This document shows, in pieces, positions 17,778 through 39,971 of a DNA stretch of 64,000 nt; the stretch's first letter is position 1, and each line of letters starts with the position of its first letter. Both the position numbers and the translations under genes were made by a program. The notes beneath the pieces were generated by a model, which did no database searches, was not told the origin of the DNA, and saw only the letters and a list, made by a program, of their open reading frames with translations. The stretch is from Rhizaria sp. SCN 62-66. Its lineage: Eukaryota. The stretch is taken from positions 1 to 64,000 of the forward strand of contig MEDY01000124.1 of assembly GCA_001724265.1 (NCBI GenBank), read 5' to 3'.

Positions 17778-20425
17778 TCACTTGTGCGGAGACTGAGATT
17801 GCTGCTGTTGCGGAGACATCGGTCCTCGCATCGGCGACTGCAGCTGCTGTCGCTACGGTTGCTGCCGCTGTTCGTGCACTGTCGCATTCGTAGCAGACGC
17901 GGGGAGCTTGCCAGTGACAAGGAATACAGTCGCTGTGGCCGCCGTCGACGCCCCTGTGTAGGCCAGTGAGGTCAACCGCGACCAGATGCTCCCATCCTCT
18001 CCCTCGTTCTCAGTCTCTGCGTCGGCCACAGGAAGTTGCTGTTGCCCGGGACCACTTGCGCCCACAGTCGCCGCGGTGACTGTGCCAGCCACAGCGCCGC
18101 CACTGTCGTCGTTGATATGGCAGTCGCGGTGAGCACCGGTGCACGGAACGAGAGTGAGTGCGTTAGCGGGGAGATGGCTGATAGCGTCGCAGTTATCACT
18201 TGTTTCGTGGGTCAAGTTACCAGCAACACCAACGGCACCCTGCTCAGCTGCGGAAGTTGCCGTGAGCGCATTCCTAACAGCCTCTCCACTCTGTGCACCG
18301 GCATCATCGAACATAAGCCGCCTGGCGGCCTCGTCCCTCTCCTGCACGCAGTCGCCCAGCGCCTCGGGCCCCTCCTGTCCACAGTCACCACTACCGTCGC
18401 CCGCCAGGCTGTCGGCGGGCGGCGCCAGCGCCCAGCTCAGCCACCCCACGAGCATTCTAGCCGCGCCCGAGCCCGCGTCATCGCCCTTGGATCCACCACC
18501 GTAGCCGCCGCCGCGGCCGCCACCGCCACTGCTGCTGTTGCTTCTTGCGTTCGTGCCGCCGCTGAGGTCGACGCCGCAAAGGGTCACGAGTGCCCGCGCG
18601 TACCCGCGCCAGCCGCCGACGCCGTGGTGCGCGCCCAGCACGCGCGCCCCAGCACGCAGCCGCAGCGCCAGCCCCAGCACCAACAGCAGCCGCGCCGCGG
18701 CGGCCAGCGCCGGCAGCCGCGCGTCGCCGCCGCCCACGGCCGGGGCCGCGTTGCGTCGCAGCAGCACCGTCGCGCCGCCGCTGCCACTGCCGCCGCTGCT
18801 AAACATGCCCCCCCGCGCCGGCGCCGCGAGGTTGATGCTCCCCGCGCCCGCGCCATTCGCGCCCGCGCTGGCACCGGAGCAGGCGAAAAAGCGCGGCGTG
18901 ACCAGGTCCAGCGGCACAACGGCCATGCGCGCGAGCACCGCCGCGGCGGCCCGCGCGACCGCGGTGCCGCCCGCGCGCCACGCCAGCGCGAGGCAGAGCA
19001 CGTCCACGAGCAGGTCGACGCGGAAGCGCGAGCCGAGGAGGCGGGCAAGCGCGCGGCGCTGGCGGGCCAAGGCCGCGGCCTGCAGACGCAGGCGCGCGTC
19101 CACGGCGGCAAAGCGGCGCTGCGTGGCCGCGGCGTGCGCGGTTAAAGCGCCGTCGAGCCTGGTATGAGTTAGTTCGCAACAAAATAGAACAACATGTAAA
19201 CAAATACAAAGTTGGTAAGAGAAAACATCTCCATACTGCCGTAAATCAACAGCATAACTCCAAATTAATGCAGATTGCACCAAAAACGTGAAAACAACGT
19301 GATTTGCGGTGATATAGCATTATCGTACCTGTTGACGTCGCCGCCAAGCGCCCCCAGCGCCGCATCAGCCCTGGCAAGCGCCGCGTCGTGCTCCGCGAGC
19401 GCGGCCGCGTGGACACCAAGCTCCCGCTCATGTTCAGCGATGCGGCCGTCCATGGCGCCTACGCGCTGCGCCCCGGCCGCGAGCGCGCGGTCCAGCGCGG
19501 CGACGTCAGAAGCCACGCGCTGCACGCGGAGCGCGGCGGCGTAGTCGTTGGCCAGGTGCAGCGCGTGGAGCTGCGCCGAGGCCGCGTTGATGCGGTTCTG
19601 CCGCAGTGCGTTCTCGTCGTGGAGCAGCAGGTAGCGCGCCAGAGCGCGGCCCAGGGAGCCGCGGGAGGCGAGAGCTGCCAGCGCGGGGGAAGACAGCGAC
19701 ATCGCGCTCCCGGGCTGCTGCGTTGACGACAGCGGGCCATGCTGCAGGTGTTGGCGGGTTGCCACAGCCGAGTGACTGTGCGGGGCTGGCGCAGTTAGCG
19801 GCGCCGAGGCCAGTGCTGAGAGCGCGGCGGCGGTCGTCGCCGGAGGGAACGAAGCCGAGGCGGACGCGGTGGGTGAGAACTCGTGCAGCGTAGAGGGCGC
19901 GCAGCCTGCTGCGCTCGCGTTGCTGTGAGCAGACGCGGACGAAGGCGCCGCGAGCGCGATCGCGGACACGGAGGCCGCCGCGGGGAGCAGCGGCGGCAGA
20001 CTGAGCAGCGCGAGCGCGTCCCTGCTCGCGTGCTCGAGCCCGCCACCGCCGGCCTGCGGGGCGCCGCTAATGGTAATCGTGGCCAACGGGCGAGACAGGG
20101 ACGGGAACGAGAGGACCGCTAGAGCGGGTGCAGCCGCTGTGTCTGCGTCCGCGTCGGCACCAGTTTCTGGCTGCTGCGTTAACCCCATTCTTGCTTCTTT
20201 CTCTGTCGCAGTCTCAGCTCCGGAGAATGCACCTGAGTCACTGTGCGGAGGACTCTTAACCTCCAAACGCTCGATGTTGGGCGTATAGGCAGGGCTAGAT
20301 ATGTTGCAGCGCTCGTGCGAGGACACTGTGTTATGAGTTGTAGCTTTGTTTGGAGTTGCATGAGGGAGTGCAGGGCCCGACACGCGCCGCTCATCCGCAG
20401 ACGGCGACGACAAAGGCGAGCTCAT
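17778..20425 (-). CDS. Hypothetical coiled-coil protein with hydrophobic segments, ~825 aa; exons 20425-19329 and 19158-17778; one in-frame TAG (17853-17855)
   Basis: A phase-2 intron joins ORFs 19265..20440 and 17853..19283. Past the TAG the frame continues ...HEQRQQP[TAG]RQQLQSPMRGPMSPQQQQSQSPHK-TGA(17778). The heptad-like region runs from LARYLLLHDENALRQNRIN to IAEHERELG. Confidence 0.72.
19159..19328 (-). other. Spliceosomal intron (170 nt, phase 2)
   Basis: CAG|GTACGA ... ACTAACTCATACCAG|G, with a branch-point-like CTAAC next to the acceptor. Confidence 0.85.
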
Positions 20426-21041
20426 GCAACGTAGTAGCAAAGAGCACTTAAAGTAGTGGCTAGGTGTGCTGCCGCCAACCTATGTCGTAAAAAGAACATA
20501 TCAAAGCCAGGGAGTATGTGAGAGAACGGGTCTGGAAGAGCGTTGTGCGAGTCGTCGGTGTGAGAGCGACAGCGCGATTAGGCGACAATATAGCCTCCAT
20601 TAGAAGGCTTAAAACAGAAACAAACAAATAACAACCACGAAAATAGCATATCAAGAGCTCATATCAAGATAACGAAGTTCTGTCGAGATCAAGCGACTCG
20701 ATTCAAGAAGATCCCAACGCAACGGGTGGGAGTGTCCTGGACCGTTGTGGACCGAAAAAGTATGCTGCACAGCTCGAAGAGTCGTTTCTTTGTCTTGCAC
20801 TTAAACCATGCAATATGACACATTACAATCGTCACTTAGATATGTTGTTATACCCCAGTGCAATTGAGAAAATATTTTTTCTATAACATTTACTCACTTG
20901 CATTAATCCCTTGTTCCTATACCGTAGCGGCTCTCTGCAGAAACGTGCTTGAGTAGGCTCCTCTTCCTCTTGCTCTTCCTCTCGTTCCGTTCCGCCTCGC
21001 CCGCTCTTCCCCTTTCCAAGGGCCCTCACTGAGCCGGAGCC

Positions 21042-22277
21042 ATGTCTTCCGTTGAGATGAGCGCACCCGCCGGCACCCACTCTCACCGCGACGCTTCTTT
21101 CCCCGACTCTGGCGTCCCTTCTGCCCGCGCCTCCGCCACCGACAGCCACCGCGCCCCGGCCGCTGGCTCCGGCGCCGTCTCCGCGTCCCGCAGCAGCGCC
21201 GCGGGTCCCCCGCAGCCGGCTCCAATGCAGCTGACGGGCATGGAGGTCGCCGCCCTGCGCGAGCGCGCGCACGTGAGCGACCACCAGCCGATCATGGGGC
21301 TGAGCAAGTTCCGCACGTTCCACCACTGCGCCGACGGGCCCCGCGCGCAGCGGGCCCAGCACGGCTATGTGTTACGGCCGTCGCTGCCCGCCGTGGTGTC
21401 GATCCGCGACCCCGAGCTGCGGTCGAACCACGTGGCGCTCAAGTATATCCGCGCCGACTCGGCGTCGCAGCTGACGGCGACGTCGCGCTTCTACTATGTC
21501 AAGCGCGACAAGGTGCCCAAGATCCCCAAGGAGATGTTCGACGACGACGAGGAGGACGACGAGAGCAGCCTCATCACCTCGTACCAAGTCAAGACGCTCG
21601 AGCGCAAGACGCTGTCCCCCCGCGCGCGCGCCGCGGAGATGCCCGACCCCGCGCTGTTGCAGGCGCGTAAGTCGCTTTTCGTGGGCGACGACGATGACTT
21701 CTTCAACGCGCTGGGCAAGGACGGCGACGACGACGAAGATGAGGACGAGGACGAGGACAGCAGCGACGACGAGGACGACAGCGACGAGTCCGAGGATGAG
21801 TCGGACGAGGACGAGCTGCAGTGCTGCGTCTGCGGGCAGGCGGAGCTGTCGGAGCCGCAGGTGAGCGCGTGCGGCCACATCTGCTGCGGCGACTGCTGGC
21901 GCACGTGGCTGTCGCGCTCGAGCAACTGCCCCGAGTGCCGCAAGCCTGTCAACCCGGAGCTGCTCAGCGACGTGCCCACGTGCGGCATCTGCGAGGGACT
22001 GCTCGTGGTCGGCGGACTCATGGGCTGGCGCGCCAAGTGTTCCCACATGTGCTGCAAGCCTTGCTGGGACGTGTATCTGGCCGACATCCAGGAGTGCCCC
22101 GTGTGCAACGAGTTTTGCGACCCTAAGGACCTGGTGGCGCAGCGCCAGCCAGACAAGCCCAAGGACTCGGACGACGACAGCGACGACGACAGCGACGATG
22201 ATGACGATGATGACGACGACGATGACGATGACGATGATGATGATGACGCTGCTGCGAAGGACGATGACTCTGATTGA
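21042..22277 (+). CDS. Tandem C3HC4 RING-finger protein (putative E3 ubiquitin ligase) with acidic tracts, 411 aa
   Basis: CCVC...ACGHICCGDCW...CPECR and CGIC...KCSHMCCKPCW...CPVCN, flanked by Asp/Glu tracts. Stop TGA. Confidence 0.88.
   Translation: MSSVEMSAPAGTHSHRDASFPDSGVPSARASATDSHRAPAAGSGAVSASRSSAAGPPQPAPMQLTGMEVAALRERAHVSDHQPIMGLSKFRTFHHCADGPRAQRAQHGYVLRPSLPAVVSIRDPELRSNHVALKYIRADSASQLTATSRFYYVKRDKVPKIPKEMFDDDEEDDESSLITSYQVKTLERKTLSPRARAAEMPDPALLQARKSLFVGDDDDFFNALGKDGDDDEDEDEDEDSSDDEDDSDESEDESDEDELQCCVCGQAELSEPQVSACGHICCGDCWRTWLSRSSNCPECRKPVNPELLSDVPTCGICEGLLVVGGLMGWRAKCSHMCCKPCWDVYLADIQECPVCNEFCDPKDLVAQRQPDKPKDSDDDSDDDSDDDDDDDDDDDDDDDDDDAAAKDDDSD
22171..22247 (+). repeat. Coding GAY trinucleotide tract (Asp-rich C-terminus of the RING protein)
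   Basis: Run of GAC/GAT codons visible directly. Confidence 0.85.
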
Positions 22278-22645
22278 GCTCAACAACAACAAAAACATAG
22301 CGCATAGAACGATGCGCTGTCACGAAACAACCCAGAAGAGAGTCATGCTGAGGCCATTCTCATTCACTGCTGAGAGGCCGTTCTGTGACTCACAAGCGAC
22401 TATTTGCGATACATGTATCGTTAATACAAAGAATACACTAACACACAGTCAAATAACGTCATTAAACTTTATTATTAAGCTTACAGTATTATTAATAGAA
22501 ATACTAACACGTGTTTTGTGTTGAACATCATACATTTGTAAATAACCTTTCGATAACCTGGCCACATAGAACATAATCCATCAGCCTCCAACCATCGCAA
22601 TCATGGCAAAAAGCTTCTCATCGCAGAGACAGAGACAGAGGCCGT

Positions 22646-25600
22646 TCACCGGCGCTGCTGCTTCATCTTGGCAATCTTCTTGGTCGACACGCGCGTGCCG
22701 AGGTTTGTGTCGTTCTTCTCGCGCTCGAGAATGCTCCACACACGCGACTTCTCGGCCTCGATGGCGCGCGTCATCTTGGTCGTCTCGCGCAACCGCTCGG
22801 CCGCGACCAGCTCCGTCGCACGGCGCACCTCGCGCAGCGTCGTCTTGCGCTCGCGCTTGAGCTTCTTGACAAGCTTCTTGGTCTCGACCACCTCGCGGCT
22901 CGAGTCGTAGGTGCGTCCGGGCACGAAGTTCTCGTGCACGCTCGGCGTGAACTCGCGCACGGCCACGGGCTTGGCAAACTTCTGCAGCGGGCGCCGCTTG
23001 AGCGCGACGCGCGCGGCCGCCGTTGCGAGCGACACGCGCAGCGACGCGACGCGGGCCGCCAGCGGGGCGTCGCCCGGCAGCCGCGCGTAGTCAGTCACCT
23101 CGTGCTGCGCCACGGCGTCGGCCGCGCGGCCCGCGGCGGAGCGCTGCTGCAGCGCCGTCAACGCCGTTTGCAGCGGCGCCAGCAGCTCGGGGAAGCACAC
23201 CGACGCGCGCTGCGCCAGCGCGGCGCGGAAGGCAAGCGAGAAGATGGTCGCCAACGCGGCCGCGAGGAAGGTCCTGGAGGCGAAGACGTCGAAGCCGTTG
23301 TGCGGGAGGAACGCGAGAGACAGAGGGATGCGCGACCCGGGGGCCGCGGTACTCGCGGGGGTCGCGTACGCGGCGGCGCCCAGCGCGGCGATCGCGTCCG
23401 CGGTCTCGTCGGCGGCCGCGCGCTCGCGGGCCGTCATCTTAACCGGCTCGGGCGCCTTGGTGACGGCCGCGTCGTACGACTGCGGCGGCTGCACCGAGCG
23501 CACGGCGGCAAGCGGCGCGGCCATGAAGGCGTCGTCGGCGACCGCGTCCGCGAAGGACCGCGCGCACGCCAGCGGGTGCACCGTGCGCAGACGGGGCTCA
23601 AGCAGCGCCGCGCGGTGCGCCGCGTCGCGCGGCTGCATCTGCGACTGTGCGAAGGCGGCCACGCGGCTAGACAGACCGGTGTCGGCGCTCGCACTAGCAG
23701 CAGCAGCCTTGACCGCAGCCTTCTTGCCCTTCTTAGCAGGAGCAGCAGCAGCGGCGGCGCTCGCGTTGCTGTCGGTGGCCGTGGCGTCGGCGGCGGCGAG
23801 GTTGCAGAGCGTGACGAGCGCGGACTGGAGGAAGGAGAAGATCTCTGGCACGAGGCGCTTCGAGTCCTGCGTGTACTCAAGCAGCGTGCCTGCAATGAAG
23901 AGCCCGGCGGCGAGGTCGCGGCCGCCGCGCAGGGGCAGCGTGGCGAGGCACTCGGCCAGCAGCAGCGTCAGCGGCGTCGTGATGTTGTGGCGGAAGTCTG
24001 ACACAGGGTAGAGCTTGCCGACGAGGCGCAGCCCCATGAGCTCGTGCGCGACAGGGAAGTCGCTGCGCAGCGCCTGCGACGGCGCGCGCGGGTCCGGCGA
24101 GGCCAGGCGCTCCTGGATGCTAGTGCGGATCGCGGCCACGAAGTCGCGCGAGGCAGTGGCGGAGAACTTCTTGACGTTGTCCGAGATCTCGAACGCCTCG
24201 CGCGCAACCCAGTCCGCGGCCGCAAGCGTGGGCGCGACCGAGACGAAGGCGGCCGCGGATTGCTGCGAGGAGCCCGCGGGCACGGAGGCCGCGAGCGGGA
24301 GCGCGCCGGCCACGGGCACCACGCTGCTCACAGAGCTGGCGGCGTCGTCAGAGTCGGCGCGAGAGCCCGCGGCGCTGACGAGCTTGCAGGGCTTGCGCGC
24401 GGTCTCGGCGGCGGTCACGCGGCGCACGGCGCGCTCGGTGACGACGCGGAGGTGGCGGAAGAGCGCGCGGAACAGCGTCTCGGAGCGCGACTGGTTGAGC
24501 GAGTCCTCGAGCTTGGGGTTGAAGAGCGTGCGCATGCGCGACACAATGAGCTCGTGGTCCGCAAGCGCCTTGCGCGAGTCGACTCCGCGCGTGGCCAGAG
24601 TGGCCGCGAGGTCGCGATACATCTTGGGCGGGTTGAACGTGAACGGCACTGGGTTCGCCTCGGCCGTGTTGTCCGCGAAGGTGGGCTCGGTGAACTTCAT
24701 CTTGCGCGCGATGCGGCGGCGGCGCTTGCGCTCCTCGGCGTCGCTGTCGTCCGAGCCCAGGTCATCGTCGGAACCGGTGGTCCCCGAGTCGTCGCCGCTG
24801 CTCTTGAGGTCGCTGTCATCGCCGTCGTCGCCGCTGCCGACGGAGCCGGCGGCCTTGCGCGCGGCCTTCTTGGCCTTCTTGGCGTCGCGCTCGCGCACGG
24901 CGTCGTCGAGCATCGCGTTCTCGTCCTCCGAGTCCAGGTCAGAGGCCTCGAACGAGTCGTCGCCGCCGCCGAAGTGGCTGTCGAGCTGCAGGTTGCCGCC
25001 CAGGTCCTCGACGGCCAGGCGCGCCGCCGCGGCGGCCGTGTGGGCAGAAACGGACACAGCGGGGCGCGGGCGCTTCGACTGCGGACCAGTGATCTCGCTC
25101 TCGCTGCCGTCATCGTCCTCATCATCCTCATCGTCGCCGTCCTCGTCATCAGCGTCGGAGTCAGCCTCAGCATCGGCGTCCTCACCATCCTCGTCCTCGT
25201 CCTCGTCCTCGTCTTCGTCGTCTTCGTCGTCGTCAGAGTCGGAGTCAGAGGGCTTGGACGAAGGCTTGCCAGACTTAGCGGCACCCTTAGCGGCGTCGCG
25301 CGCGATGGCGGCCTGCTTGCGCTGCTCCTTGGTGGCGGCGTTGAGCTCCGCCTGCTGCGCGCGCAACTCGCGGGCCGCGTCATAGGCGCCGCGGTGCTCA
25401 GCCTTGCGTAGCAGCTTGAGCTGGTGCTTGCGGTCACGGGACGACATGCCCTCCATCTCATCGTCGCGCTCCTCGCCACTCTCGGCGTTGTCCTCGCCAC
25501 TCGCGGTGTCGGAGCCGGAGCTGGAGAGCTCGCCGTCGCTGTTCATCAGCGTCTCGCCGCCGATCTCGCCCTTGTCGTCCTCCTCCTCGTCATCATCTGA

Positions 25601-26956
25601 GTCACCAGCCGAGCCGCTGGCGTCGTCGTCGGAGCCCTCGTCGATGCGGACGCGCTTCTTGGCCTTTTGCGGCAGGGCGGCTGACCCGAAGGCCCCGAAC
25701 CCGGCGCCGGTGCCGAAGCCCAGTCCGAAGGTGTTGCCGCCCGCGGCGGCGCCGGCGTCGCCGGTATTAAAGCGGGCGCCGACGGTGAGCGCGCCGACGC
25801 TCTTGCCGCCCGCGACGGCCGCGGACGCGATGTCGTCATCAGCGTCGTCGGCGTCGGAGCCCGACCCCGCGCCGCCCGCGGTCATGCGCCGCATGCGCGC
25901 GCGCTCGAGCGCCAGCAGCCGGTCGCGGTGCACGGCGGCGACGTCCTCGGCGTTCTCGAGCTTGCTGCCCGCCACGGCGCGCTGGGAGAACTTGAGCTTG
26001 CGCGCCGCAGCGACGAAGTCGTCGTCCGAGTCGTCGCTGTAGCCGCCGGCAGCCTTGGCCGTGTCGGCGTCGCCCGCCTCGTCGCCGTCGTCGTCCGAGG
26101 CGTCCATGAGCTGCTGCTGGCGGCGCGTGAGGATGGGCTTGCCGTCCATGCCGATGCGCGCGACGCGGATGTCGTCGTCCTCGGCGCCGTCGGCGGAGGC
26201 GCGCGCAGACAGCGAGCCCGTGAGACGCTCACGGAGACGTTCCTCCTTCGACTTGAACTCGAGGAACGGGTGCAGCGCGGTGAGCGAGGCGTCCATCTCG
26301 GCCACCGAGGCCTGCAGGTCGAGCCCCTCCTGGTGGCGCTGCGCGCGGTAGAACTTGGACTTGGCCATGATCTCCTTCATGATATCATCCTTGGACATCT
26401 TGGCGCGCTCGGCGGCCGTCTTCTCGGGGAAGAGGTGGCGGCGCTGCGCCTCCAGGTCACCGCCACCGAAGTGCTCGAATTTGACCAGGTTCGACGGCAG
26501 CTCGCCCTTGTCTCCCGCGCCTTCGGCGTCCGAGTTGTCCGAATCAGAACCCAGCTTGGCGGCGTTGATCTGCTCGGCCGACATCGTCGAAAGCGACTGG
26601 CCCATGTGCGTCAGCTCGTCCTCGTCCTGCAGCGCGTACTTGCCGTTGCCCGACGTAAGCTTCCGCGTCAGCGCGGCCTGGCGTGCGCGCTCGGCCTGGA
26701 AGCGCGCAAGGTACTTGTCCTCTTCGGACATGCCCGCCTTGTTCTCGCCGAGGCGCGCGTCGTCGAACTTGTTCCGCTTCGACGCCGTCGAGAGCTCCGT
26801 CTGCAGCGCCTCCTTGCGCGCAGAGATGGCCTTGGCGCGCGACTTGGAGGCCGTGTTGATGGTCGTGCCGTGCGTCTGGCGGTTGAGCACATTGAACTTT
26901 TGCTTCGTGTCGCGCGTGTCGAACACGTCGCCGACAGTGAAGATGCGCTTGCTCAT
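22646..26956 (-). CDS. NOP14: Nucleolar protein 14 (40S biogenesis), 1436 aa
   Basis: NKFDDARLGE..MSEEDKYLARFQAER, ELTHMGQSL, HFGGG, MKEIMAKSKFYRAQR, LYPVSDFRHNITTP, SKRLVPE, KKLKRERKTTLREVR. Stop TGA. Confidence 0.93.
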   Translation of the reverse strand: MSKRIFTVGDVFDTRDTKQKFNVLNRQTHGTTINTASKSRAKAISARKEALQTELSTASKRNKFDDARLGENKAGMSEEDKYLARFQAERARQAALTRKLTSGNGKYALQDEDELTHMGQSLSTMSAEQINAAKLGSDSDNSDAEGAGDKGELPSNLVKFEHFGGGDLEAQRRHLFPEKTAAERAKMSKDDIMKEIMAKSKFYRAQRHQEGLDLQASVAEMDASLTALHPFLEFKSKEERLRERLTGSLSARASADGAEDDDIRVARIGMDGKPILTRRQQQLMDASDDDGDEAGDADTAKAAGGYSDDSDDDFVAAARKLKFSQRAVAGSKLENAEDVAAVHRDRLLALERARMRRMTAGGAGSGSDADDADDDIASAAVAGGKSVGALTVGARFNTGDAGAAAGGNTFGLGFGTGAGFGAFGSAALPQKAKKRVRIDEGSDDDASGSAGDSDDDEEEDDKGEIGGETLMNSDGELSSSGSDTASGEDNAESGEERDDEMEGMSSRDRKHQLKLLRKAEHRGAYDAARELRAQQAELNAATKEQRKQAAIARDAAKGAAKSGKPSSKPSDSDSDDDEDDEDEDEDEDEDGEDADAEADSDADDEDGDDEDDEDDDGSESEITGPQSKRPRPAVSVSAHTAAAAARLAVEDLGGNLQLDSHFGGGDDSFEASDLDSEDENAMLDDAVRERDAKKAKKAARKAAGSVGSGDDGDDSDLKSSGDDSGTTGSDDDLGSDDSDAEERKRRRRIARKMKFTEPTFADNTAEANPVPFTFNPPKMYRDLAATLATRGVDSRKALADHELIVSRMRTLFNPKLEDSLNQSRSETLFRALFRHLRVVTERAVRRVTAAETARKPCKLVSAAGSRADSDDAASSVSSVVPVAGALPLAASVPAGSSQQSAAAFVSVAPTLAAADWVAREAFEISDNVKKFSATASRDFVAAIRTSIQERLASPDPRAPSQALRSDFPVAHELMGLRLVGKLYPVSDFRHNITTPLTLLLAECLATLPLRGGRDLAAGLFIAGTLLEYTQDSKRLVPEIFSFLQSALVTLCNLAAADATATDSNASAAAAAAPAKKGKKAAVKAAAASASADTGLSSRVAAFAQSQMQPRDAAHRAALLEPRLRTVHPLACARSFADAVADDAFMAAPLAAVRSVQPPQSYDAAVTKAPEPVKMTARERAAADETADAIAALGAAAYATPASTAAPGSRIPLSLAFLPHNGFDVFASRTFLAAALATIFSLAFRAALAQRASVCFPELLAPLQTALTALQQRSAAGRAADAVAQHEVTDYARLPGDAPLAARVASLRVSLATAAARVALKRRPLQKFAKPVAVREFTPSVHENFVPGRTYDSSREVVETKKLVKKLKRERKTTLREVRRATELVAAERLRETTKMTRAIEAEKSRVWSILEREKNDTNLGTRVSTKKIAKMKQQRR

Positions 26957-27344
26957 CGCTGGACAGGCGCGTCGCGGCCGCGGGGGGTCAGCGGCGAAGA
27001 GGTGCTGGGGGGAAAAAAGGGTGGGAGAGAGGGAAGCGGGCCGGGACCACGAAAATGGGTGCGGGCTAGAGGTCGGGCGGCGAAGGGCAAAGACAGAGCG
27101 AAAAGGGGCGACAAAAGGAACAGCGCAGCGGTGAGTATAGAGCTTTTCGTAAGATTTCTATAGATTTAATAAAACAATTGCTCTTCTTATTTTCTTTAAA
27201 TCGCAGTTAAATCCCGTCGTGACGGTGTTTAGGGCCTGGCAGATATGTTTTGCGTGCAGCCCTCGCACCAACCAATAGCCGACCCGCCCGCCGCAGCGCG
27301 GCTGCAAGCGAGGGTTCTCAAAAATCTGGCGGCAGCAGCGAGAC

Positions 27345-27360
27345 GAGATGAGGCGATGAG
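27345..27360 (+). promoter_or_regulatory. Tandem PAC-like motifs (GAGATGAG, GCGATGAG) in the NOP14/REI1 divergent spacer
   Basis: Exact matches to the GMGATGAG core of the yeast PAC element, lying between two ribosome-biogenesis genes. Function is inferred only. Confidence 0.35.
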
Positions 27361-27402
27361 GAGGACTGGGTTGTGAGTCAAAAGTGATTACGTTCTGTTG
27401 AA

Positions 27403-29446
27403 ATGGACCATAATTACGACAACGATTTCATCTGCAATGCGTGCCAGTGCCCGTTGCCCACGCCCGAGTCTCGGTACGTTCTTCAGCTCCCCAGCAAAGC
27501 GTATATACGCACTATTCTGCACCCTTCGCCCTTCACACCATCTCGCCCTTCAGCCTCACCGCACTTGTTGTAATAGACCTGGTATATCGATGCTCGTGAG
27601 TACAACATGAATATTTTGTGCAAGAAGGAACTTGTAAATACTTATAACCACTCGTACATTTACCACCGGCTTACATTTTTCCCGCCATTTCCATGCTTCT
27701 CGCATCTCCACCACGAATGCATTGCCCGCATACCCTCCTTGCTCCCCTGCCCCGTATCACCCCAACGCCCCGCACAGTCTCCAGCACTACCGCACGACGT
27801 GGCACCGGTACAACGTGCGCCGCCGCTGCGTGGACCTGCCGCCGATCCCGCAGGAACTGTTCCTGAGCAAGTACGACAAGGTCCGCGAGGAGCTGGCCGC
27901 GCCGACCGTGCAGGAGCTCACCTGCCCCGTCACCAAGCGCACCTTCAAGACGGCCGCTGCGCTCGAGCACTTCCACAGCTCCAAGGCGTACCAGAAGGCG
28001 CTGGAGAAGGCCAACTCGCGCACTTCGCGCGCCGAGGACCTCGAAGCGCGCGTCGCCCGCGGCGAGGCCGTGCCGACCGAAGTGCGCAACAGCGACGGCG
28101 TCGTCGTCGACAAGGTGCTGTACCGCGTTCCCACGGCCGAGGAGGACCCCGTGAACCCCGAGGAGGAGGCGCTGCTGCGCCGCGACACTGCGCGCGCCGA
28201 GGCCGCCGCCGCGACGGGCGGTGTGCTTGCGCCCAGCGTGGCGACGGCGGCCGAGTCGTCCGCGGCCGCGCTGGCGGGCGAGGAGGCGCGCCGCACGGGC
28301 CAGCTCCCCGTGCCGACTTCGGCAGCGATGCTGGAGATCATGGCCGAGGCCGGGTACGCGCCCGACAACCTGCTGCACCGCCCGATCCCGCTGCGCTACT
28401 CGCTGTTCGACCGCGTGGGTCCGTTCCGCTCCGTCAAGGGCTGTCTCGACTACATGCTGCGCGAATACGGCTTCCACATCCCGTTCGTGGCGTACTTGAC
28501 CAACCTCGAGGGGCTGATGGAGTATCTGGGCACCAAGGTTGGCGTGGGCCACACGTGCGTGTGGTGCCACAAGGGCTTCGCGTCGCTCAAGGACGTGCAG
28601 CAGCACATGCGCGACATGGGCCACTGCATGATCTCGCTCGACGACGAGGAGGGGCAGGAGGACGAGGACTTGCACGAGTACTTCGAGTTCACGCACACGC
28701 TCGACCGCGAGGCCAACAACGGCGAGGACGACAACGACGAGTGGCTCGGCGACGCCGACGCCGCCGCCACTGTCGCCAACGACGGCGACAACGAGGAAGA
28801 GGAGGAGACGGGCGCGAGCAAGCCCAAGGTGATGACCGACAACGCCGACGCCGACGACGAGGACGCTAAGGCCGCCGCGCTGCCCAAGCTCACCAAAGAG
28901 GAACGTCTGCAGCTGCGTGCGACGCAGCGCCTGCGCACGCTGCAGCTGCTGCGGCTCAAGACGGCCGCCGAGGCCGCCGAGGCCGAGGAGCACCTCAACG
29001 CCGTGGCCGCGATCCCGTCCGCGGAGCGCGCGCTGGTGGAGCGCCCCGAGCAGACGTACAAGGGCATTCTGACCTTCGCAGCGCCGCGCAAGCGCGAGCT
29101 GGTGGAGAAGAACGAGCTGGGCGAGCTTGTGTTCGCCGACGGCAGTGTTATCGGCCACCGCCAGTACAGGCACATGTACCGCCAGCGGCAGGCGACGACC
29201 GAAGAGCGCGACCCCGAGGAGGAGCTCGAGGCGCGCCAGATGCGCGCCGCGCTGACGAACCAGTACGCGTCGCTCCAGATGCCCGGGTACGCCTACACGG
29301 TGACCGAGACGCCCAAGGAGTACTCGGTGGCGATGGAGAAGCAGCACCGCGAGGTGCGCCAGCGCAAGCTGCGCGAGGAGAACAAGCAGGGTATCAACTA
29401 CAACATGATCCTGCGTCGCTGGTTCCGCCACCAGGTCCCCAAGTAA
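27403..29446 (+). CDS. REI1: Cytoplasmic pre-60S maturation factor REI1/ZNF622, ~579 aa; exons 27403-27473 and 27778-29446
   Basis: Splicing rebuilds the N-terminal zinc finger FICNACQCPLPTPESR|LQHYRTTWHRYNVRRRCVDLPPI. Also YGFHIP..YLTNLEGLMEYLGTKV, CVWC..F..LKDVQQHMRDMGHC and ELVFADGSVIGHRQYRHMYRQ. Stop TAA. Confidence 0.92.
27474..27777 (+). other. Spliceosomal intron (304 nt, phase 2) in REI1
   Basis: CG|GTACGT ... CGCACAG|T gives CGT (Arg) and unites CxxC with the His pair. Confidence 0.88.
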
Positions 29447-29840
29447 GCGCCGAGAAGGGCGCGCCAGTGCTGCAAGGCAAGGGCAAAGGTTAGCAACACT
29501 GTCAATCGAAGAAGAAGGCTTTTATCAGCGTTGCCTTGCGTTCCTTGTGTGATCGATCTTGCTTGCTGCTGCTTTGAACACTTTTGTTTTCGTTCTTTTG
29601 TTTGTTTTTGTTTTGCTCGCGCATCTAGTTCGCGATTGTCTGCCACTGTTACGTGTGTCAGTTGGAGGACGTGCTTGTGCGCACGCTTTTCTTGCTGTTG
29701 GTTGTTGGTTGACGATGGTGGCAAGGACTCATTTCGTTTTAGACCTCAAAATATACACATTTTAATTTTCACAGTTCGCTTGACGCAATGTATGTTGCAT
29801 GTCAATTCTGCAATCGTTTATTCGTAGCTGTCTCACACAG

Positions 29841-32315
<2,475 letters not shown>

Positions 32316-32605
32316 GGCGAAAGTGCCGTGGCCACAATCGTTGCTCGCCTCAAGTAGGTAGTCGTTATTGTGGATGCCCTGAATATAACAGTGACTTCGA
32401 AGACTTGCTTTCGCTGAGGCGACAGGGTGAATCGAGAAGAGATTGATGATACGTTAATATAGATTCTCTGAATATATAATTAAGAAGTTCAATTTAAAAC
32501 ATAGATATAATAATTCTCTCAAAATGCCATGTCTATTGACGAACATCTAAATGATATCAAACTATTTTTTTGTTGCTTCATTCTATCTCCCAACAAGGAT
32601 CAAGC

Positions 32606-35600
32606 ATGCTTCGCTCCGCACTTTCGTGCAGGCGCGGAGCTCTTGCTCTTTCACGTTTCACACTGCCCTTCGTTGTTACAACAACTTCAACACTGAGTGC
32701 ATCCATTTCTACCCGCGGCTTTGCTGTGCGCCTGCATCAATCTCTCCCGACGGTGAAGCCGAGTTTCTCCTGCCCCCTCGCCCCTCGTGCTTTGCCCGCT
32801 GCCACCACCGCTCTTCGCGCCTCGCTTCCCGCCTCAATTCGCGCTTTCTCCGCGGCCCATGCATCCCCTGTGACCGCGCGGCCGCACATGCTCGGCGAGG
32901 ACTCCGGTAACGAGCGCACGCACACCTGCGCGGCCGCCGCGGCCCTCGCGCCCGGCACACCAGTGTGCCTCACCGGTTGGGTGATGCGCTCGCGCGCGCT
33001 CGGCGGCGTCCTCTTCCTCGCGCTGCGCGACCATACGGGCTCGCTACAGTGCGTGTGGGAGCTCGCGCACGCCACCGCCGCCGCGGCGCCGCTGCTGGCC
33101 GCTTTTCCGGGGCTGGCGGACGCAGGCGCGCTCGGGCCCGCTGGCTTCGCAGCCGCGTCCGAGGCGCGCGTCGAGTCCGTCGTCTCGGTCCACGGCGTCA
33201 TCCGCACGCGCGAGACCGCTGCGCGCACGCGCGGCACCGCCGGCGGCAAGGGCGCTGTTGATGCGAGCACGGCGGATGAGAGTACCAAGAGCTTCACAGC
33301 TCTGGACTGGACGGCACAGTCGCTCGCCGCGGCCCAGAGCAACGGCTCTGCGGCCGGGCTGGCGTCCGCACAGACAAGCCCGGTCTCGGCGTCCCCGGTG
33401 TCCCTGGCGTGCGTGGGGCAGTCCCCGTTTGCGGGCGTGACTGCGGCGCCGCAGCCGAGCCTGGGCGCGCTGGCCGAGGCCTCCGCGCTGCCCGTCGAGC
33501 TAGCCATCACCTCGCTCAAGGTGCTCAACCCGGCCGCCACGCTGCCGGGCGTCTTCTTCCCGGGCGCCGGCGAGACGCTCTCGGACGAGGACACGCGGCT
33601 GAAGCACCGCTACATTGACCTGCGCCGCCCGCAGCTGCAGGCCGCCGTGCGCGCGCGCGCCCGCATCACCGCGGCGGCCCGCACAGCGCTCACCGCTGCC
33701 GGCTTCACAGAGGTCGAGACGCCCGCGCTGGTCAAGTCGACGCCCGAGGGCGCGCGCGAGTTTCTAGTGCCGTCGCGCGCGGCGGGGGCGTTCTACGCGC
33801 TGCCGCAGTCGCCGCAGCAGCACAAGCAGCTGCTCATGGCGGGCGGCGTGGACCGCTACTTCCAGGTCGCGCGCTGCTTCCGCGACGAACACGGCCGCCA
33901 GGACCGCCAGCCAGAGTTCACACAGATCGACCTGGAGATGGCGTTTGTTACGCAGCGCGAGGTCATGGCCGCCGCCGAGGCGCTCGTCGCGGCCGCGCAC
34001 GAGGCCCAGTTCGGCGTCGCGCCCGCGCTACCCCTGCCGCAAATGCCCTTCTTCGAGGCGCTCGACCGCTTCGGCTCCGACAAGCCCGACTTGCGCTACG
34101 CGCTGCCGCTACACGACATCACCGACGCCATGCTCAACGGCTATGAGGGCGGCGCGGACGCTGCTGTAGCCAGTGACGCACTGCTCGCGCGCTGCGAGAG
34201 CCTATACCCCGGCTTCGTGTCTGCACACGCTGAGCACAGCAACAACACCAGCAGCACCAGTGTCACTGTGAACGCAGATGGGACTGCCGCCACGCGCGTG
34301 CCCGCGCGGTCGGTGCTGCCGTGCGTCAAGGCGCTGGTGCTGCGCGGCCAGGCGCCCGCGCTGTCCAAGAGCAAGTCTAAGGACGCGGTCGCGGGTGTGC
34401 GCCGCGCGGGCGAGAGCGCCGCCACGCCCGACGGCGTCTTCGTTGTGCACGCGGGCAAATGGAAGCCGCCGCCGTCGCTGCCGGCGCTTGCGAGCCCCGC
34501 CGTGCGCGCGCGGCTCCAGCAGCAGCTCGCGCTGGGCGACGACGACCTGCTGCTCATCGCGGCGGGGCCCTGGGAGGGTGTGTGCAACGCGATGGGCCGC
34601 GTGCGCGCCGCGGCGGCGCGGCTACTGCCGGCCGACGCGCCTGATGCGACGCCCGTGCTGCTGCGCAACAGCGCCGGCACGGCGACCTACGCCGCCACCT
34701 GCGAGGCCCGCGAGCGCGCGCGCAGCGCCCGGGCGACCAAGACCGCGACCGCGACTGCGGACGCCGACTCGGCGGGTGCCGCGAGCGCTGCTGCGGGCGC
34801 GAGCGCTCTCACAGCGGGCGTGAACGAGGGCCCGCTGCCGATGCTGCACTGGGTGACGGACTTCCCTCTGCTGGACGTGACGGTGCCGCCCGCGGTGTGG
34901 CGCCAGCGCAGCACGGCGGGCGCGCGCCACGTCTCGCGCGCTGCCGGCGGCAGCAGCGACGACGCCGCAGCGGCTGCGGGCGAGGCGGGCGCTGCGGGCG
35001 GCAAGGACGTGTTCATCCAGGCCATGCACCACCCGTTTACCGCGCCGCACCCCGCGGACGCCACCGAGGCCGACGCGCTGCTTGCTAAATTCGTCAACAA
35101 CAGCAACGCGCCCGCGAGCGGCAGCAGTGATCCGCAGAGTGTGGCTGAGAATAGCAAGAGCGACCGTGCGTTCCCGCTGTCATTCGCGGAGCTCTCGGCG
35201 CTGCTGCAGGTGCGCGCGCAGCACTACGACCTGGTCGCCAACGGGCTCGAGGTCGGCGGCGGCTCCGTGCGCCTGCACGCGCCGCCGCGCCAGACAGCGG
35301 TGCTGCGGACGATGGGCGTGGACCCCGCGCAGTTCGAGCACCTGCTCGCCGCCCTGGGCTCGGGCTGCCCCCCGCACGGCGGCTTCGCGGCGGGGCTGGA
35401 CCGTCTCGTCGCGCTCCTCGCCACGGGCTCCGGCGCACCGCTGCCGCTGCGCGACGTCATCGCCTTCCCCAAGACGCTCACGGGCAAGGACGCGCTGCTG
35501 GGCGCGCCCGCGCCGGCGACCGCGGCGCAGCTCGCGGAGTACCACATCGCCACCGTTGCGCCGGCGCGTAGTAGCAACAGCGGCGACGGCAGTGGTGAGG

Positions 35601-35608
35601 CCAAGTGA
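32606..35608 (+). CDS. DARS2: Bacterial-type (mitochondrial) aspartyl-tRNA synthetase with N-terminal targeting peptide, ~1000 aa
   Basis: RTHTC, GWV..R.LGGVLFLALRD, RLKHRYIDLRR, TPEGAREFLVP, YALPQSPQQHKQLLM..GVDRYFQVARCFRDE, DRQPEFTQIDLEM, FGSDKPDLR, HHPFTAP, YDLVANGLEVGGGS, PPHGGFAAGLDRL, VIAFPKT. Arg/Ser/Leu-rich, acid-poor N-terminus from ATG 32606. Stop TGA. Confidence 0.95.
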   Translation: MLRSALSCRRGALALSRFTLPFVVTTTSTLSASISTRGFAVRLHQSLPTVKPSFSCPLAPRALPAATTALRASLPASIRAFSAAHASPVTARPHMLGEDSGNERTHTCAAAAALAPGTPVCLTGWVMRSRALGGVLFLALRDHTGSLQCVWELAHATAAAAPLLAAFPGLADAGALGPAGFAAASEARVESVVSVHGVIRTRETAARTRGTAGGKGAVDASTADESTKSFTALDWTAQSLAAAQSNGSAAGLASAQTSPVSASPVSLACVGQSPFAGVTAAPQPSLGALAEASALPVELAITSLKVLNPAATLPGVFFPGAGETLSDEDTRLKHRYIDLRRPQLQAAVRARARITAAARTALTAAGFTEVETPALVKSTPEGAREFLVPSRAAGAFYALPQSPQQHKQLLMAGGVDRYFQVARCFRDEHGRQDRQPEFTQIDLEMAFVTQREVMAAAEALVAAAHEAQFGVAPALPLPQMPFFEALDRFGSDKPDLRYALPLHDITDAMLNGYEGGADAAVASDALLARCESLYPGFVSAHAEHSNNTSSTSVTVNADGTAATRVPARSVLPCVKALVLRGQAPALSKSKSKDAVAGVRRAGESAATPDGVFVVHAGKWKPPPSLPALASPAVRARLQQQLALGDDDLLLIAAGPWEGVCNAMGRVRAAAARLLPADAPDATPVLLRNSAGTATYAATCEARERARSARATKTATATADADSAGAASAAAGASALTAGVNEGPLPMLHWVTDFPLLDVTVPPAVWRQRSTAGARHVSRAAGGSSDDAAAAAGEAGAAGGKDVFIQAMHHPFTAPHPADATEADALLAKFVNNSNAPASGSSDPQSVAENSKSDRAFPLSFAELSALLQVRAQHYDLVANGLEVGGGSVRLHAPPRQTAVLRTMGVDPAQFEHLLAALGSGCPPHGGFAAGLDRLVALLATGSGAPLPLRDVIAFPKTLTGKDALLGAPAPATAAQLAEYHIATVAPARSSNSGDGSGEAK

Positions 35609-35929
35609 TATGGGCAGCTGAGTGACTATTTATTATATTGCAATCATATCGTGATGCTTTTGTTTAAAATGCGACTATTTTGTCTGTTATTCACGTTTCG
35701 ATACATAATGGCCATTTCCTAGAAACCCATGGCTGAATTATGACAAATATAGCAGGAACCACCACCAGTAACAACACGCAAATGAAAAAGAAGGAAAACA
35801 GTATCTACAATAAGTACTTTAGCTTTGCGCACTTTGCTTAGAAGCCATGTTCGTCTTAATAAAAACAAACTGCACATCGTTGTTATTGACGTTTTATTCT
35901 GACATTCCTTCTTGTTTTGTGTTTGTCTC

Positions 35930-38900
35930 TCATGCGTCTGAAAGCTCAGAGGCCTCATCAGCCGCGTGTTCCGCTGCCTCCACAGCAGCGGCGACCGACT
36001 TCTCGCTATGCCCCGCGGCAATCGCATCAGCAGGGAGCGAGTGTTGTCCATGCGCATGCGCTAAGTGGCAGTGCGCCGCAGTGTCCGCCTGACTTTGCAC
36101 GCTCTGCTGGCTGTGCGCGTCACGCGGCTCCTGCTGCAGGAGCTACGACTGCTCGTTATGCGACGGCGGCTGGAGCTGCACTGGCTGCGCTGGTTGCACA
36201 TCTTGCGCGCTGCTCTGCGGTGACCCCTGGTGCACCTGTGGGGGCGACAGTGCGGGCTGCTGAGACATGTGCTGCGAGGAGTGCGGTGCAGGCTGCGACC
36301 GTGAGTTCGGATGCGTCAGCGGTTGAGCAACGTTTGGCTGTGATACCTGCTGTGATGACTGCTGGACGGCAGTTCCCTGCGACTGGGTCTGCGCATGCTG
36401 TGCTGCCTGCGGTTGCGCTGACTGCAACCGACTTGCGTGCGGCTGGGGGATCCGCCTTTGATCTTGAGACTGCGGTGTCTGCGACATAGACAGTGGGAGC
36501 TCGCCAAGGCCGCCGCTGACACTAACACCATTGCTGCTTGTCGCAGACACTTGCGGTGACTGCGGCTGCCGCTGCGAGTTGAGCTGTGAGAGTTGATGCG
36601 GGGAGCTTCGGGCCAGCTGAAGGTGCTCCTGTTGAGAGCTGTGGAGTTGCGATTGATGCTGCGGGTGCTGAGAGAACCGCGGTTGTTGCGACACTTGCGA
36701 GTGCCGCGGTGGTGTCGCCTGCGGTTGCGGAGACAGCAGCTTCTGCTGCAGCGGTGACTGAAGCTGGCTTTGCTGCGGTGAGCTTTGCTAAGAGCGCCGC
36801 TGCTGCGACAGCGCCAGAGCCTGCTGCTCAAGCTGAGTATGGGACTTCACATGGGACAGCATGCTCAGGTTGGCCTGTGACAGCGACTGCGGCATGTTCA
36901 GTAGCCTTTCTTTGTGCACGCCCCCTTCCGCGTCCGACTCAGAGTCAGCCCGCGGGCTGCGCTGCAACGGAGTCAGCTGCGACGGGGACCGCAGTTGCAG
37001 TGGTGGGCGCTGTGCCTGCGAATGTGACGGCGACTGTAGCTGCGTTCGCTGTTGGCGTGCCTGTTGCGACTGCGAGAGCGATGCTTGACGCGATTGCTCG
37101 CGTTGCTGTAACGGGGACATCTGCTGCGAGTGCGGCCACGTGAGCACGTGTGCCGGAGACTGCGCTGGAGAGCGTTGACGCAGTTGTGCCGGAGACTGTG
37201 ATGGTGAGCGCACCTGCGACTGCGCTTGCGACGCGCGCGAGCTTTCAATGGCGGCCTGACTGCTTGCGCTCTGACTCCGTGTCTCGCCTGTGCCAGCGTC
37301 AGCGCGGCCGATAGTGCCACTGGCATCTCTGCGGTTTCTGCTGTCAACAGCAACCTCGTCATAGCCCGCACCGCTGCCGAGAGCGTTCGCGTCCACTGGC
37401 GGCCCCGCACCGGTCACTGCGCTCACGCTTGTGTTTGTTTCCGCCCCCGTGATTGCGTTGTCGCCGATACCCTTTGTGCAGATATCGCGATCGTCCACCA
37501 TCGGCGTCCCGGCGACACCCTCGCTGTCGACGACGGCGGTCGCAACAGGCGCGGCTTGAGGACCATTACTCAGCGTGCTGCCGGCAACCTTGTCGCCCTC
37601 GACTGGGTGCGCATCAGTGCGACGAGCGCTTGACCGACCGCGAGACACCGCTGCCGCCTCCGCCTTCGCCATTGCAAGTGCCTCGGCATCGGCCTGCGCC
37701 ACCTTTGCCTTTGCTTTTGCGGCCGCCTCAGCCTACGCCTTGTTCTCCAGGCTCTCAGTCACCAAATCGCGCTCAGTTTTGCCGCCAACCCCGTCGCGAC
37801 TCACCGCGGCCTTCACCTCCCGCGCCCGCGCATCGGCCGACTTGGCGGCCCGTTTATCCGCCGCGGCCTCTTGCTGCGCCAGCGCCGCGCCCGCCGCGGC
37901 CTCGGTCTGGTCCGCCTGGCTAAGCCACCACGCGTCGACGAGGGCCGCCGTCGCGGGCACGCGGCCCTGCGGCGGCCGGGCGCCGAGGCCAACCAGCGGG
38001 CTAACGACGCTGTTGCTAACATGCGCGCGGCCGTGGCTCGGGGCGGGGGCCGGGGCGGGCGCGTGTGCGAGCGCGCCGAGGCCGGGACTGGCCGCCACGC
38101 CGACGGTGGCGAACGGCATGGGAACGGATGATGACGTGTTGTCGTACTCTTTGACGCTGTCGGAGCTGTTGACGCCGCTGAGGGTAGTGTTGTTGTTGGC
38201 GTTTTCATTGTCGCTGTCATTGAGTACCATGTTCGCAAGACTGTTCACATTCTCATCATTCGCACTGTTTGTGTCGTCCGCGTTGGCGCTTCTGATAGCA
38301 GCGTCGGCATCTGTATCACCGGCGTCACTGTCGTTGGCGGCATCACTTGCTGCGTCAAGTACAGCTGCAGCGACATCCTTTGCAAGAAAATCGTCGCTAA
38401 TACTTTTTGTCGCCGTCTGATCTGCATGCGCATCATCATCCGCATGAGCCATGTCACGATGAACAGCGTGTTCAAGGTTCATATCCCGGCCCTTTGTAAC
38501 CACAGCCGCGTCCTCCGCCGTGATTGCGCGCGCCACCACCGCGTTCCCAGTAGCTGCCGCGGCGGCCTTGCGCGCCGCCGCGGCTTTGAGCGTCTCCGCT
38601 ATCGGCGGCACCCAGTCAGACGGCCTGCCGAAGGGCACCTGGGACTGGTACCTGAAGTTGGACCGCTGCGAGCTAGCCTACATCTTCACGTTAAGCTTCC
38701 GCCGCGCCGGCGCGTTCTCCGCGTCTTCCTCGTCATTGTCTAGGTCACTGTGATGACTACGATCGGCAATGTCGTCGTCATCTTCGTGGCCGACATCGCC
38801 GGCGTGAGCTACCGAGCCACGTCGCAGCCCTTGCCTCACCACCGCGCCCTTGGCTCCCGTGCCCGCGAGGCCGTCGTCGCCGTCGCGGTCCGCGCTCGCC

Positions 38901-39971
38901 AGCGGCAGCCGCGCGCTCAGCGGGGCCGCGCGCGCGGGACGGGGCGGCGCCGTGTAGACTGTCAGTGGCGGCTGCGAGGCCCTAAGACGGGCCCACTTAG
39001 AGCTGTCGCTTGGCTCAGCGCCCGTTGCGAGCGTGGTGGCGGCGGCGGCTGTGGCGTTGATGGCCGAGGCAGGCGCTGGACGCTTGGTGCCTTTCTTAAC
39101 GCAGTGACTGTCTCCGAATTCGCTGTTGTCGTCGCTATCGTTGTCCGAGCGAAGAGCAGCTTCGTCGAACGCGCCGTCGCCTTCGTCGTCGTCGTCGCTG
39201 TCCTTGCCCTTTCCGGAGTCCTTGCCCTTCTCTTGCACCTGCAGAGCCGATGCAGCGCCCTGCTTGACTCGGCCCTTGCTCCCGCCAGTCGTGCCACCAA
39301 ACGCGCGCTGGTTAAACACAGTCAGTGACGGGCCGGCGCTTGCGCTTGAGATTCTTGGTGCCCTCGCAGACTTGCTACCAGCCGCAGCCGCGGTCGCGGC
39401 CGTCGGAGGCGCCGCAGTGGAGCCGAGTCCGCTGGAGCTTGAGCTGCTGGTGGCCACCTCCGACCACGCGCTCGTGGACGGACTTGCCTCGGAGGGGCTC
39501 AGCCCAGCCACCGCGCGGTCTGCAACGGTCCTCGCGGCGGAGAACGCGATGAAAGCGCGGAGCTTGGTGACGCGCTGCTCGACCTCGCTCTCGACCGCGT
39601 CCACGGCGCCGATCTGCTGGAACCAGAGAGACTGTGGCAGCGCGTCGTACACCACGCGCCGCACGCGCTCACAAGCCGCGACGTTGCGGCGGAGAAAGAC
39701 GGAGCAGGACGCATGAAGCGCGCGCACTGCGGGGGCAGGATCGGACGTGGTGGAGAAGTCGGTGTCTTCGACGCTGTGGACGAGGGTGTCGAGCTCTGTC
39801 GTCGCTGTCGCCTTGAGGGACTACAACTCCGAGAGGCAACGATCGCGACCAGCCTAAAAATATATAACATCAACGGGAAATGCGTGTTTATTTAGCTTGT
39901 TACGTTATTGAGGATCTATCAATGTGCGATCAGGAAGGAAGGGAACGTACCTCAATCTGGCGCTCTGTCAT
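35930..39971 (-). CDS. Hypothetical protein with SQ/SP-rich C-terminus, ~1314 aa; exons 39971-39951 and 39853-35930; five in-frame TAG codons (39821, 38678, 37733, 36788, 36143)
   Basis: ORFs 38678..39727, 37733..38638, 36788..37702 and 36143..36694 share one frame, and each ends in TAG. Manual translation of the gaps shows no TAA/TGA until TGA 35930-35932, at the GC-to-AT transition. N-terminus MTERQIE|AGRDRCLSEL[TAG]SLKAT. Confidence 0.72.
39854..39950 (-). other. Spliceosomal intron (97 nt, phase 0)
   Basis: GAG|GTACGT ... ATTTTTAG|GCT. Confidence 0.75.

Follow-up and report, generated by a model that had tools for sequence, protein, structure and literature searches.

A 64,000-nt stretch of contig MEDY01000124.1 from Rhizaria sp. 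SCN 62-66 (positions 1 to 64,000 of the forward strand; hereafter, the window) contains four genes, referred to here as g1, g5, g10 and g12, whose reading frames include TAG codons. Our analysis indicates that TAG is probably a sense codon in this DNA. The complete explanation that we favor, though only tentatively and at just short of an even chance, is that TAG is a rare codon read as glutamine (Gln) while TAA and TGA terminate translation. If TAG is sense, Gln is its moderately probable meaning; taken overall, Gln would be our best guess, a roughly even bet placed mainly by analogy with known codes. The window does not demonstrate the Gln meaning, and glutamate (Glu) and leucine (Leu) are the alternatives.

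Fourteen in-frame TAGs, all in the four low-complexity genes, were found among the 16,254 codons of the 17 coding-sequence parts counted; each TAG is named here by its first nucleotide on the coding strand. Gene g1 (1010..5947, + strand), an Ala/Gln-rich orphan that ends in TGA and matches no Pfam family, contains two (4799-4801 and 4988-4990). Gene g5 (17778..19283, - strand), also an orphan ending in TGA, has one at 17855-17853, 25 codons before the TGA. Gene g10 (29841..32315, - strand), a conserved hypothetical gene with its ATG at 32315-32313 and its stop, TGA, at 29843-29841, has six: 32312-32310 (most likely codon 2), 31955-31953, 31931-31929, 31610-31608, 31061-31059 and 29858-29856, the last of which is 5 codons before the TGA. 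Gene g12 (35930..39992, - strand), a Ser/Gln/Ala-rich orphan composed of exon 1 (39992-39951) and exon 2 (39853-35930), ends in TGA and carries five TAGs in frame (39823-39821, 38680-38678, 37735-37733, 36790-36788 and 36145-36143). Extension of the frames takes in another eight TAGs, which are non-coding: they belong to AT-rich leaders or to the intron of another gene, g4. The eight TAGs quoted in an initial annotation of this DNA (4799 and 4988 on the + strand; 17855, 31955, 31931, 36145, 36790 and 37735 on the - strand) are all present at the positions and in the frames and peptide contexts described there.

Evidence that TAG is read as sense comes from how far the frames stay open beyond it. 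Gene frames were delimited with TAA and TGA as sole stops, and the absence of these two codons in frame is therefore partly by construction. In g10, no TAA or TGA occurs across the 817 codons past codon 2 (P=2e-8, based on base composition), compared with 18 and 73 in the other two frames; in g12, none occurs across the 915 codons past TAG 38680 (P=4e-7; 13 and 32 in the other two frames); and in g1, none occurs across the 381 codons past TAG 4799 (P=0.02; 2 and 5 in the other two frames). In the stretches past the first TAGs, in-frame TAG itself occurs less often than expected from base composition (3, 1 and 4 observed versus 8.7, 2.6 and 10.1 expected), as for a codon that is disfavored but tolerated. 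One-step nonsense mutations would produce TAG in 60-65% of cases, and the probability that ten of ten would be TAG is 0.006-0.014. A codon-usage model trained on 11,324 TAG-free codons, which included no in-frame stops of any kind, scored both flanks as clearly coding for five of the 14 TAGs (4799, 4988, 31610, 38680 and 37735); two further sites (31061 and 36145) scored weakly, the flanks of 36790 gave a mixed result, and 31955 and 31931 had negative scores. From these open, coding-like frames and from conserved blocks in g10, we infer that the TAGs would be translated and that a tRNA would decode them.

Frames with these properties can also be produced by the antisense strands of real genes. 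Antisense frames in the window run without TAA or TGA for up to 969 codons, yet contain seven to eight TAGs (eight in 32737-35643, - strand), and one antisense register has 83 TAGs versus 45 TAA and TGA codons combined. TAG is the only common antisense stop because the GC content at third codon positions (GC3) is high. We considered and rejected the possibility that g1, g10 and g12 are antisense shadows of this kind, as all three have sense-type composition (GC1>GC2<GC3), positive codon scores and no continuous opposite frame. Antisense frames mimic TAG reassignment, however, and need to be excluded from genome-wide counts.

The strongest evidence for a sense reading comes from g10, whose frame can also be followed by comparison with a relative. 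A search with a 460-residue piece of g10 returned one relative among 8000 scored candidates, an intact 511-residue protein (P0033) that aligned over its full length. Colinear conserved blocks flank and separate the first five g10 TAGs, all in one frame; they include KDSIPWS, TAAPRC, EWWVR.QC..GGM.LHLDKDEGLW, HP.WASVLYLTG, GGGPT and PPGWAW, with further blocks VWPR.G.WL.FAGDRLHGV.PP, RVTVL.N.WR.RP and LW.RYG. The motifs LHLDKDEGLW and FAGDRLHGV.PP, shared by g10 and P0033, may represent a His-x-Asp ... His metal site like that of folds resembling the 2-oxoglutarate/Fe(II) oxygenases; Pfam gave no match of this kind. The N-terminus of P0033 (M-D-S-F-P-A-C-V-T-L-E-K-D-S-I-P-W) is equal in length to that of g10 (M-TAG-P-A-G-A-A-P-V-L-L-K-D-S-I-P-W). 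The g10 ATG is the first of the frame and the only plausible one, no splice-donor-like motif occurs within 400 nt upstream of the ATG-TAG, and the spacer between g10 and the diverging aspartyl-tRNA synthetase gene is only ~290 nt. For these reasons, TAG 32312 is most likely codon 2 of g10, as judged from the alignment and the surrounding DNA. A pure run of 34 Asp residues also occurs in g10 (30324-30559, - strand).

Near-identical DNA was present in wastewater, bioreactor and activated-sludge runs of eight studies, of which runs X1-X3 contained the entire window. A scan of metagenomes returned only one contig, L001 (5,450 bp), which is identical over 32414-37862 (5,449 nt), carries three of the g12 TAGs and possibly derives from the same sample. 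A sister strain ~98% identical to the window over 20000-39999 was represented in runs X4, X5 and X7, from wastewater and activated sludge; 40 of its 190 differences are listed, and all counts of strain differences given here refer to those. Indels of 6, 12 and 3 nt distinguish the two strains inside g10 and g12. Among the poly(A)-RNA contigs listed, none covers any TAG site. An exhaustive search with 1200 residues of g12 against 1.84 billion representatives recovered only three fragments of g12 itself (P0034, P0036 and P0035), which terminate exactly at three of the TAGs; standard-code gene callers are already truncating the proteins of this organism at TAG in public databases.

Several observations, both here and among the residue tests below, weigh against a rare sense TAG read as Gln. 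TAG is absent from the 11,324 codons of the better-conserved genes, making its usage very uneven, and the genes that bear it are weakly biased, with GC3 values of 0.60-0.82 (g10 0.60, g12 0.72 and g5 0.73). TAGs 17855 and 29858 lie close to the TGA codons of g5 and g10, respectively; the 24 codons between TAG 17855 and the TGA have a non-coding score, an open frame of this length is expected by chance (P=0.65), and both TAGs may be true terminators. Under the standard code, four of the 18 genes would end in TAG, which is an ordinary share. These points, together with the status of TAG as the majority class of nonsense mutation, are consistent with TAG still being a stop, in which case g1, g10 and g12 would be recently truncated or decaying genes, or genes expressed by rare read-through, whose CAG-rich sequence breaks into TAG; the open frames past the TAGs would then be remnants. 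The gene with the lowest GC3, g10, bears TAGs, as relaxed selection would give. Strain differences listed for g12 comprise 8 replacement versus 3 silent changes, and 6 replacement versus 1 silent change past TAG 38680, an excess to be expected both of DNA that is not translated and of a protein that is disordered and free of constraint. In addition, g12 has no relatives beyond its own fragments, and the sister strain has a 1-nt insertion at 29893, ~12 codons from the end of g10. A terminating TAG is nonetheless unlikely in our view. It would cut g10 after its first codon, yet all of the P0033 blocks are kept in one frame over more than 800 codons, and neither TAA or TGA nor a frameshift interrupts the 817, 915 and 381 codons of g10, g12 and g1, for which the probability that every interruption would be TAG is ~0.01 or less. 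Three of the four listed strain indels are multiples of 3 and the fourth is at the extreme C-terminus, a genome this compact would not be expected to have three of 18 genes broken several times over, and the under-representation of in-frame TAG relative to composition also argues against termination. The standard code would likewise remain intact if the TAGs were lost from the message ahead of translation, whether spliced out in tiny in-frame introns that end in TAG or altered by RNA editing. The organism does splice, at GTACGT donors, and the motif GTGAGT precedes the ends of TAGs 31610 and 37735 by 30 nt and 72 nt, respectively, each distance being a multiple of 3; 1.8% of codons are expected to have an in-register GTGAGT within 100 nt, such that two of ten sites corresponds to P~0.014. 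However, 11 of the 13 TAGs checked, including 38680, have no donor-like motif for a tiny intron, the sole other motif being the genuine donor of the g12 intron, which lies 130 nt upstream of TAG 39823, and GTGAGT occurs 27 times in the window, approximately the base-composition estimate. The introns measured span 97, 120 and ~300 nt, with AT-rich sequence in the shorter two, whereas both candidate segments are GC-rich, lack a pyrimidine tract and have a coding score, which makes tiny introns at TAGs 31610 and 37735 unlikely. Contigs from X5 and X7 are unspliced across 37733-37804, although these libraries are probably DNA. We know of no nuclear U-to-C editing of the kind that would be needed, and we consider removal of the TAGs before translation, by either route, to be very improbable.

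The identity of the inserted residue is less firmly indicated. The initial annotation had argued for Gln from the location of TAGs in Gln-rich tracts, a description that holds for the sites it quoted and for the mean but not for the six TAGs (32312, 31610, 31061, 29858, 39823 and 37735) for which the six residues on each side include no Gln; TAG 38680, which was not quoted, has one Gln nearby. The earlier quotation was selective, with Gln-rich cases chosen. Across all 14 sites, the mean number of Gln residues among the 12 neighbors (six on each side) is 1.79, compared with 0.85 for random positions in the same genes (P=0.016), and for the ten best-supported sites it is 1.90 versus 0.89 (P=0.033). 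By this mean, the TAG sites could be true Gln sites (2.37, P=0.13) but not Glu, Lys, Tyr, Trp or Ala sites (P<=0.004; 0.004 for Glu), while Leu, Arg and His are borderline (0.06-0.07; 0.06 for Leu) and Pro gives 0.16. A classifier based on neighbor composition and trained on all genes placed Gln first by 5.9 nats. Mean neighbor hydropathy also fits Gln best (-0.90 for TAG sites versus -0.64 for Leu sites, P=0.15). On the opposing side, the TAG sites are bimodal, with zero Gln neighbors at six and three or more at five, and the six of 14 with none compare with 21% of 316 true Gln residues. In a gene-stratified neighbor likelihood, Gln came last of 20 residues when all 14 sites were used, trailing the top residue by 6.6 nats; restricted to the ten best sites, it trailed Leu, Pro and Arg (-2.8 nats). 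The composition classifier was unstable: trained on the four TAG-bearing genes, it placed Leu first with Gln 1.7 nats behind, although it recognized sets of 14 true Gln sites as Gln in 93% of cases. The initial annotation had left room for Leu or another residue, and Leu stays compatible with the context tests. CAG, correctly named there as the dominant Gln codon (707 CAG versus 135 CAA in the 17 coding-sequence parts), is the commonest one-step neighbor of TAG, to which it is converted by a transition; TAGs will thus arise in Gln tracts under any meaning. Gln-rich context therefore cannot separate the meanings, since CAG-to-TAG change in unconstrained tracts predicts just such a mixed pattern.

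Comparative columns are visible for only three TAGs, in g10 and g12, all in variable regions, and none of the three has Gln. TAG 37735 is GAG (Glu) in sister-strain contigs (A to C on the + strand) from three runs, two samples and two studies; P0033 has Asp opposite codon 2 of g10 (TAG 32312), where its N-terminus is otherwise unconserved; and TAG 31610 falls in a loop that aligns badly, where P0033 has Pro. The remaining three g10 TAGs located between conserved blocks fall in insertions relative to P0033, and no TAG occurs at a conserved Leu. The earlier statement that no TAG falls on a conserved column was borne out by the g10 alignment and by the lack of relatives for g12, but the proposed echo between KA-TAG-AEAAA at 37735 and VAQADAEA was not: no internal repeat spans any TAG, and the echo is not a repeat alignment. 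Together, the few direct hints point weakly toward an acidic residue. By a rough calculation that assumes a transition bias and a strength of selection, the GAG variant at 37735 favors Glu over Gln by approximately two to one. Three columns in regions this variable are too few to establish enrichment for Glu or Leu at TAG sites, however. That TAG is sense but encodes a residue other than Gln, most likely Glu or Leu, with the Gln-rich context reflecting origin from CAG and tolerance, is a possible though doubtful reading. It draws on the GAG and Asp columns, on the neighbor likelihood (Leu, Pro and Arg) and the TAG-gene classifier (Leu), and on precedents for Leu discussed below. Against it, the mean Gln-neighbor test rejects Glu and is borderline for Leu, and TAG occurs at no Leu (950) or Glu (626) position of the 11,324-codon reference set. 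Most of the differences listed for g12 are replacements (8 of 11), so that a Glu/Gln difference between strains at 37735 is unsurprising, and the Asp lies in a stretch of P0033 that is not conserved. In a narrower form, UAG alone would encode a residue other than Gln, for which the best hint is Glu, at an early stage of capture in which the codon is still confined to unconstrained genes; we regard this form as rather improbable. To our knowledge, no nuclear genome combines UAG as the only reassigned codon, a hint of Glu, and UAA and UGA stops in a GC-rich eukaryote that is not a ciliate. In a study of a code in which UAA and UAG have different meanings, UAG is said to specify Glu.

Under the explanation that we tentatively favor, in which UAG is read as Gln, TAG would be a rare sense codon confined to weakly biased, fast-evolving, low-complexity genes, while TAA and TGA would terminate. 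The decoder would be a tRNA with anticodon CUA, unable to read TAA, and a change of the anticodon of tRNA-Gln(CUG) to CUA would give Gln. CAG-to-TAG mutations would be silent under such a code, and TAG could drift into Gln tracts. We take NCBI table 15 (UAG as Gln, with UAA and UGA as stops) to be the matching table. No tRNA gene was found in the 64-kb window, and no Rfam family matched it.

The window is a compact, intron-poor eukaryotic nuclear contig with a GC content of ~65% overall and 59-75% in 4-kb bins. It contains 18 long frames of sense-type composition (GC1 ~0.7, GC2 ~0.55 and GC3 0.6-0.92) on both strands, separated by short, AT-rich spacers. As delimited, ten end in TGA and eight in TAA; no gene lacking a coding TAG ends in TAG, and of these 14 genes, eight stop at TAA and six at TGA. 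Pfam identified Nop14 (3e-116), a REI1-type zinc-finger protein, a mitochondrial carrier, a glyoxalase-fold protein, a RING protein, an RsgA GTPase domain in a very long frame and, at 32606..35608 (+ strand), a mitochondrial-type aspartyl-tRNA synthetase (tRNA-synt_2, 1e-88); the remaining genes are Ala/Gln/Ser-rich orphans. The synthetase gene is TAG-free, ends in TGA, and is among the TAG-free genes that served as the codon-usage reference. Its product has 1,000 residues, and the class II core, which the Pfam model describes in 308 positions, is stretched over residues 344-974, indicating large Ala-rich insertions. A single frame of 3,264 codons at 54074-63865 (+ strand; GC3 0.88) contains a bacterial-type RsgA GTPase domain near residue 2000, set in a very long Ala/Glu-rich sequence, and would be an unusual giant fusion. 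The mitochondrial carrier protein has 11 relatives at 42-79% identity, with named proteins at 28% or less, and none of 12 aligned sequences in the comparison of this TAG-free gene ends prematurely. The Nop14 protein search matched nothing except Nop14 itself, the Atlas listed generic Nop14 clusters, and scans of genome contigs for further DNA of this organism or its relatives gave no match. The RING protein and Nop14 have acidic tails (22170-22259, + strand, and 24669-25335, - strand); runs of Asp and Glu codons attract metagenome contigs of unrelated organisms, producing spurious depth and joints when reads are laid on the window.

Introns in the window are few and spliceosomal, and all of those read start with GTACGT. 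The g4 intron (13807-13926, + strand) is 120 nt long and AT-rich (local GC 0.42), reads GTACGT...AAG, and contains the non-coding TAG 13813-13815; just upstream of it, at ~13600-13700 (+ strand), is a dinucleotide-type repeat translated as a Gly-Thr run (TGTGTGTGTGTGTGTGTGT). The intron of the REI1-like gene (27474 to ~27777, + strand) is ~300 nt long, with a GTACGT donor and an ATG exon upstream, and that of g12 (39950-39854, - strand) is 97 nt long and reads GTACGT...TAG. Another GTACGT intron start was read at 50781 (+ strand). Most genes are intronless across thousands of codons. In several, the first 100-400 codons of the open frame include no ATG, suggesting that short upstream ATG exons are probably common.

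Reassignment of UAG alone has been reported for few nuclear genomes; two reports describe one rhizarian, one fornicate and some phyllopharyngean ciliates (PMC5304391, PMC11687900). UAG is read as Gln in Iotanema spirale (Fornicata; PMC5304391), which uses UAA as a stop, and in the ciliates Hartmannula sinica and Trochilia petrani (PMC11687900), and as Leu in the rhizarian exLh (Sainouroidea; PMC5304391) and three uncultivated phyllopharyngean ciliates (PMC11687900). Where UAA is kept as a stop while UAG is read, an anticodon of CUA is required, according to PMC5304391. Precedent favors Gln by analogy, with Leu having arisen at least twice among the UAG-only cases. A further report describes a code in which 'UAA and UAG code for different amino acids' (PMC10553269). 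No wastewater eukaryote in which UAG has changed meaning appeared among the matches listed in our search of the literature.

The window resembles Iotanema, Hartmannula and Trochilia in that only TAG occurs in frame, TAA and TGA end all 18 open reading frames, and a tRNA(CUA) is predicted. In those organisms, however, the meaning reportedly came from many UAGs on conserved columns (and also, in the ciliates, from genes for suppressor tRNAs), whereas no TAG here is at a conserved column. Unlike in the Gln-code systems, TAG here is very rare and limited to low-complexity genes, and its 65% GC, multi-gene DNA does not resemble a ciliate genome. Some similarity also exists with the context-dependent codes of Condylostoma, Parduczia and the karyorelicts (PMC4967479; bioRxiv 10.1101/2022.04.12.488043), as TAGs 29858 and 17855, near the ends of their frames, may terminate while internal TAGs are read; just two of the 14 TAGs are this close to the end (within 25 codons), and that number is insufficient to demonstrate an effect of position. 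All stop codons are reportedly ambiguous in those codes, whereas no in-frame TAA or TGA occurs in the 16,254 codons counted here (in frames delimited by TAA and TGA). For exLh, 384 in-frame UAGs in 71 genes are reported, many of them at conserved Leu columns, with UAG scarce in highly expressed genes (PMC5304391). The window is similar in that TAG appears to be sense, UAA and UGA are stops, and TAG is absent from strongly biased genes, but it differs in having no TAG at a conserved Leu and in the polar, disordered contexts of its TAGs. These comparisons suggest that the window contains a probable further case of the known class of UAG-only reassignments. If so, it would provide an independent example from an abundant wastewater eukaryote, and the rarity of TAG and its restriction to weakly constrained genes suggest that the codon may be at an early stage of capture.

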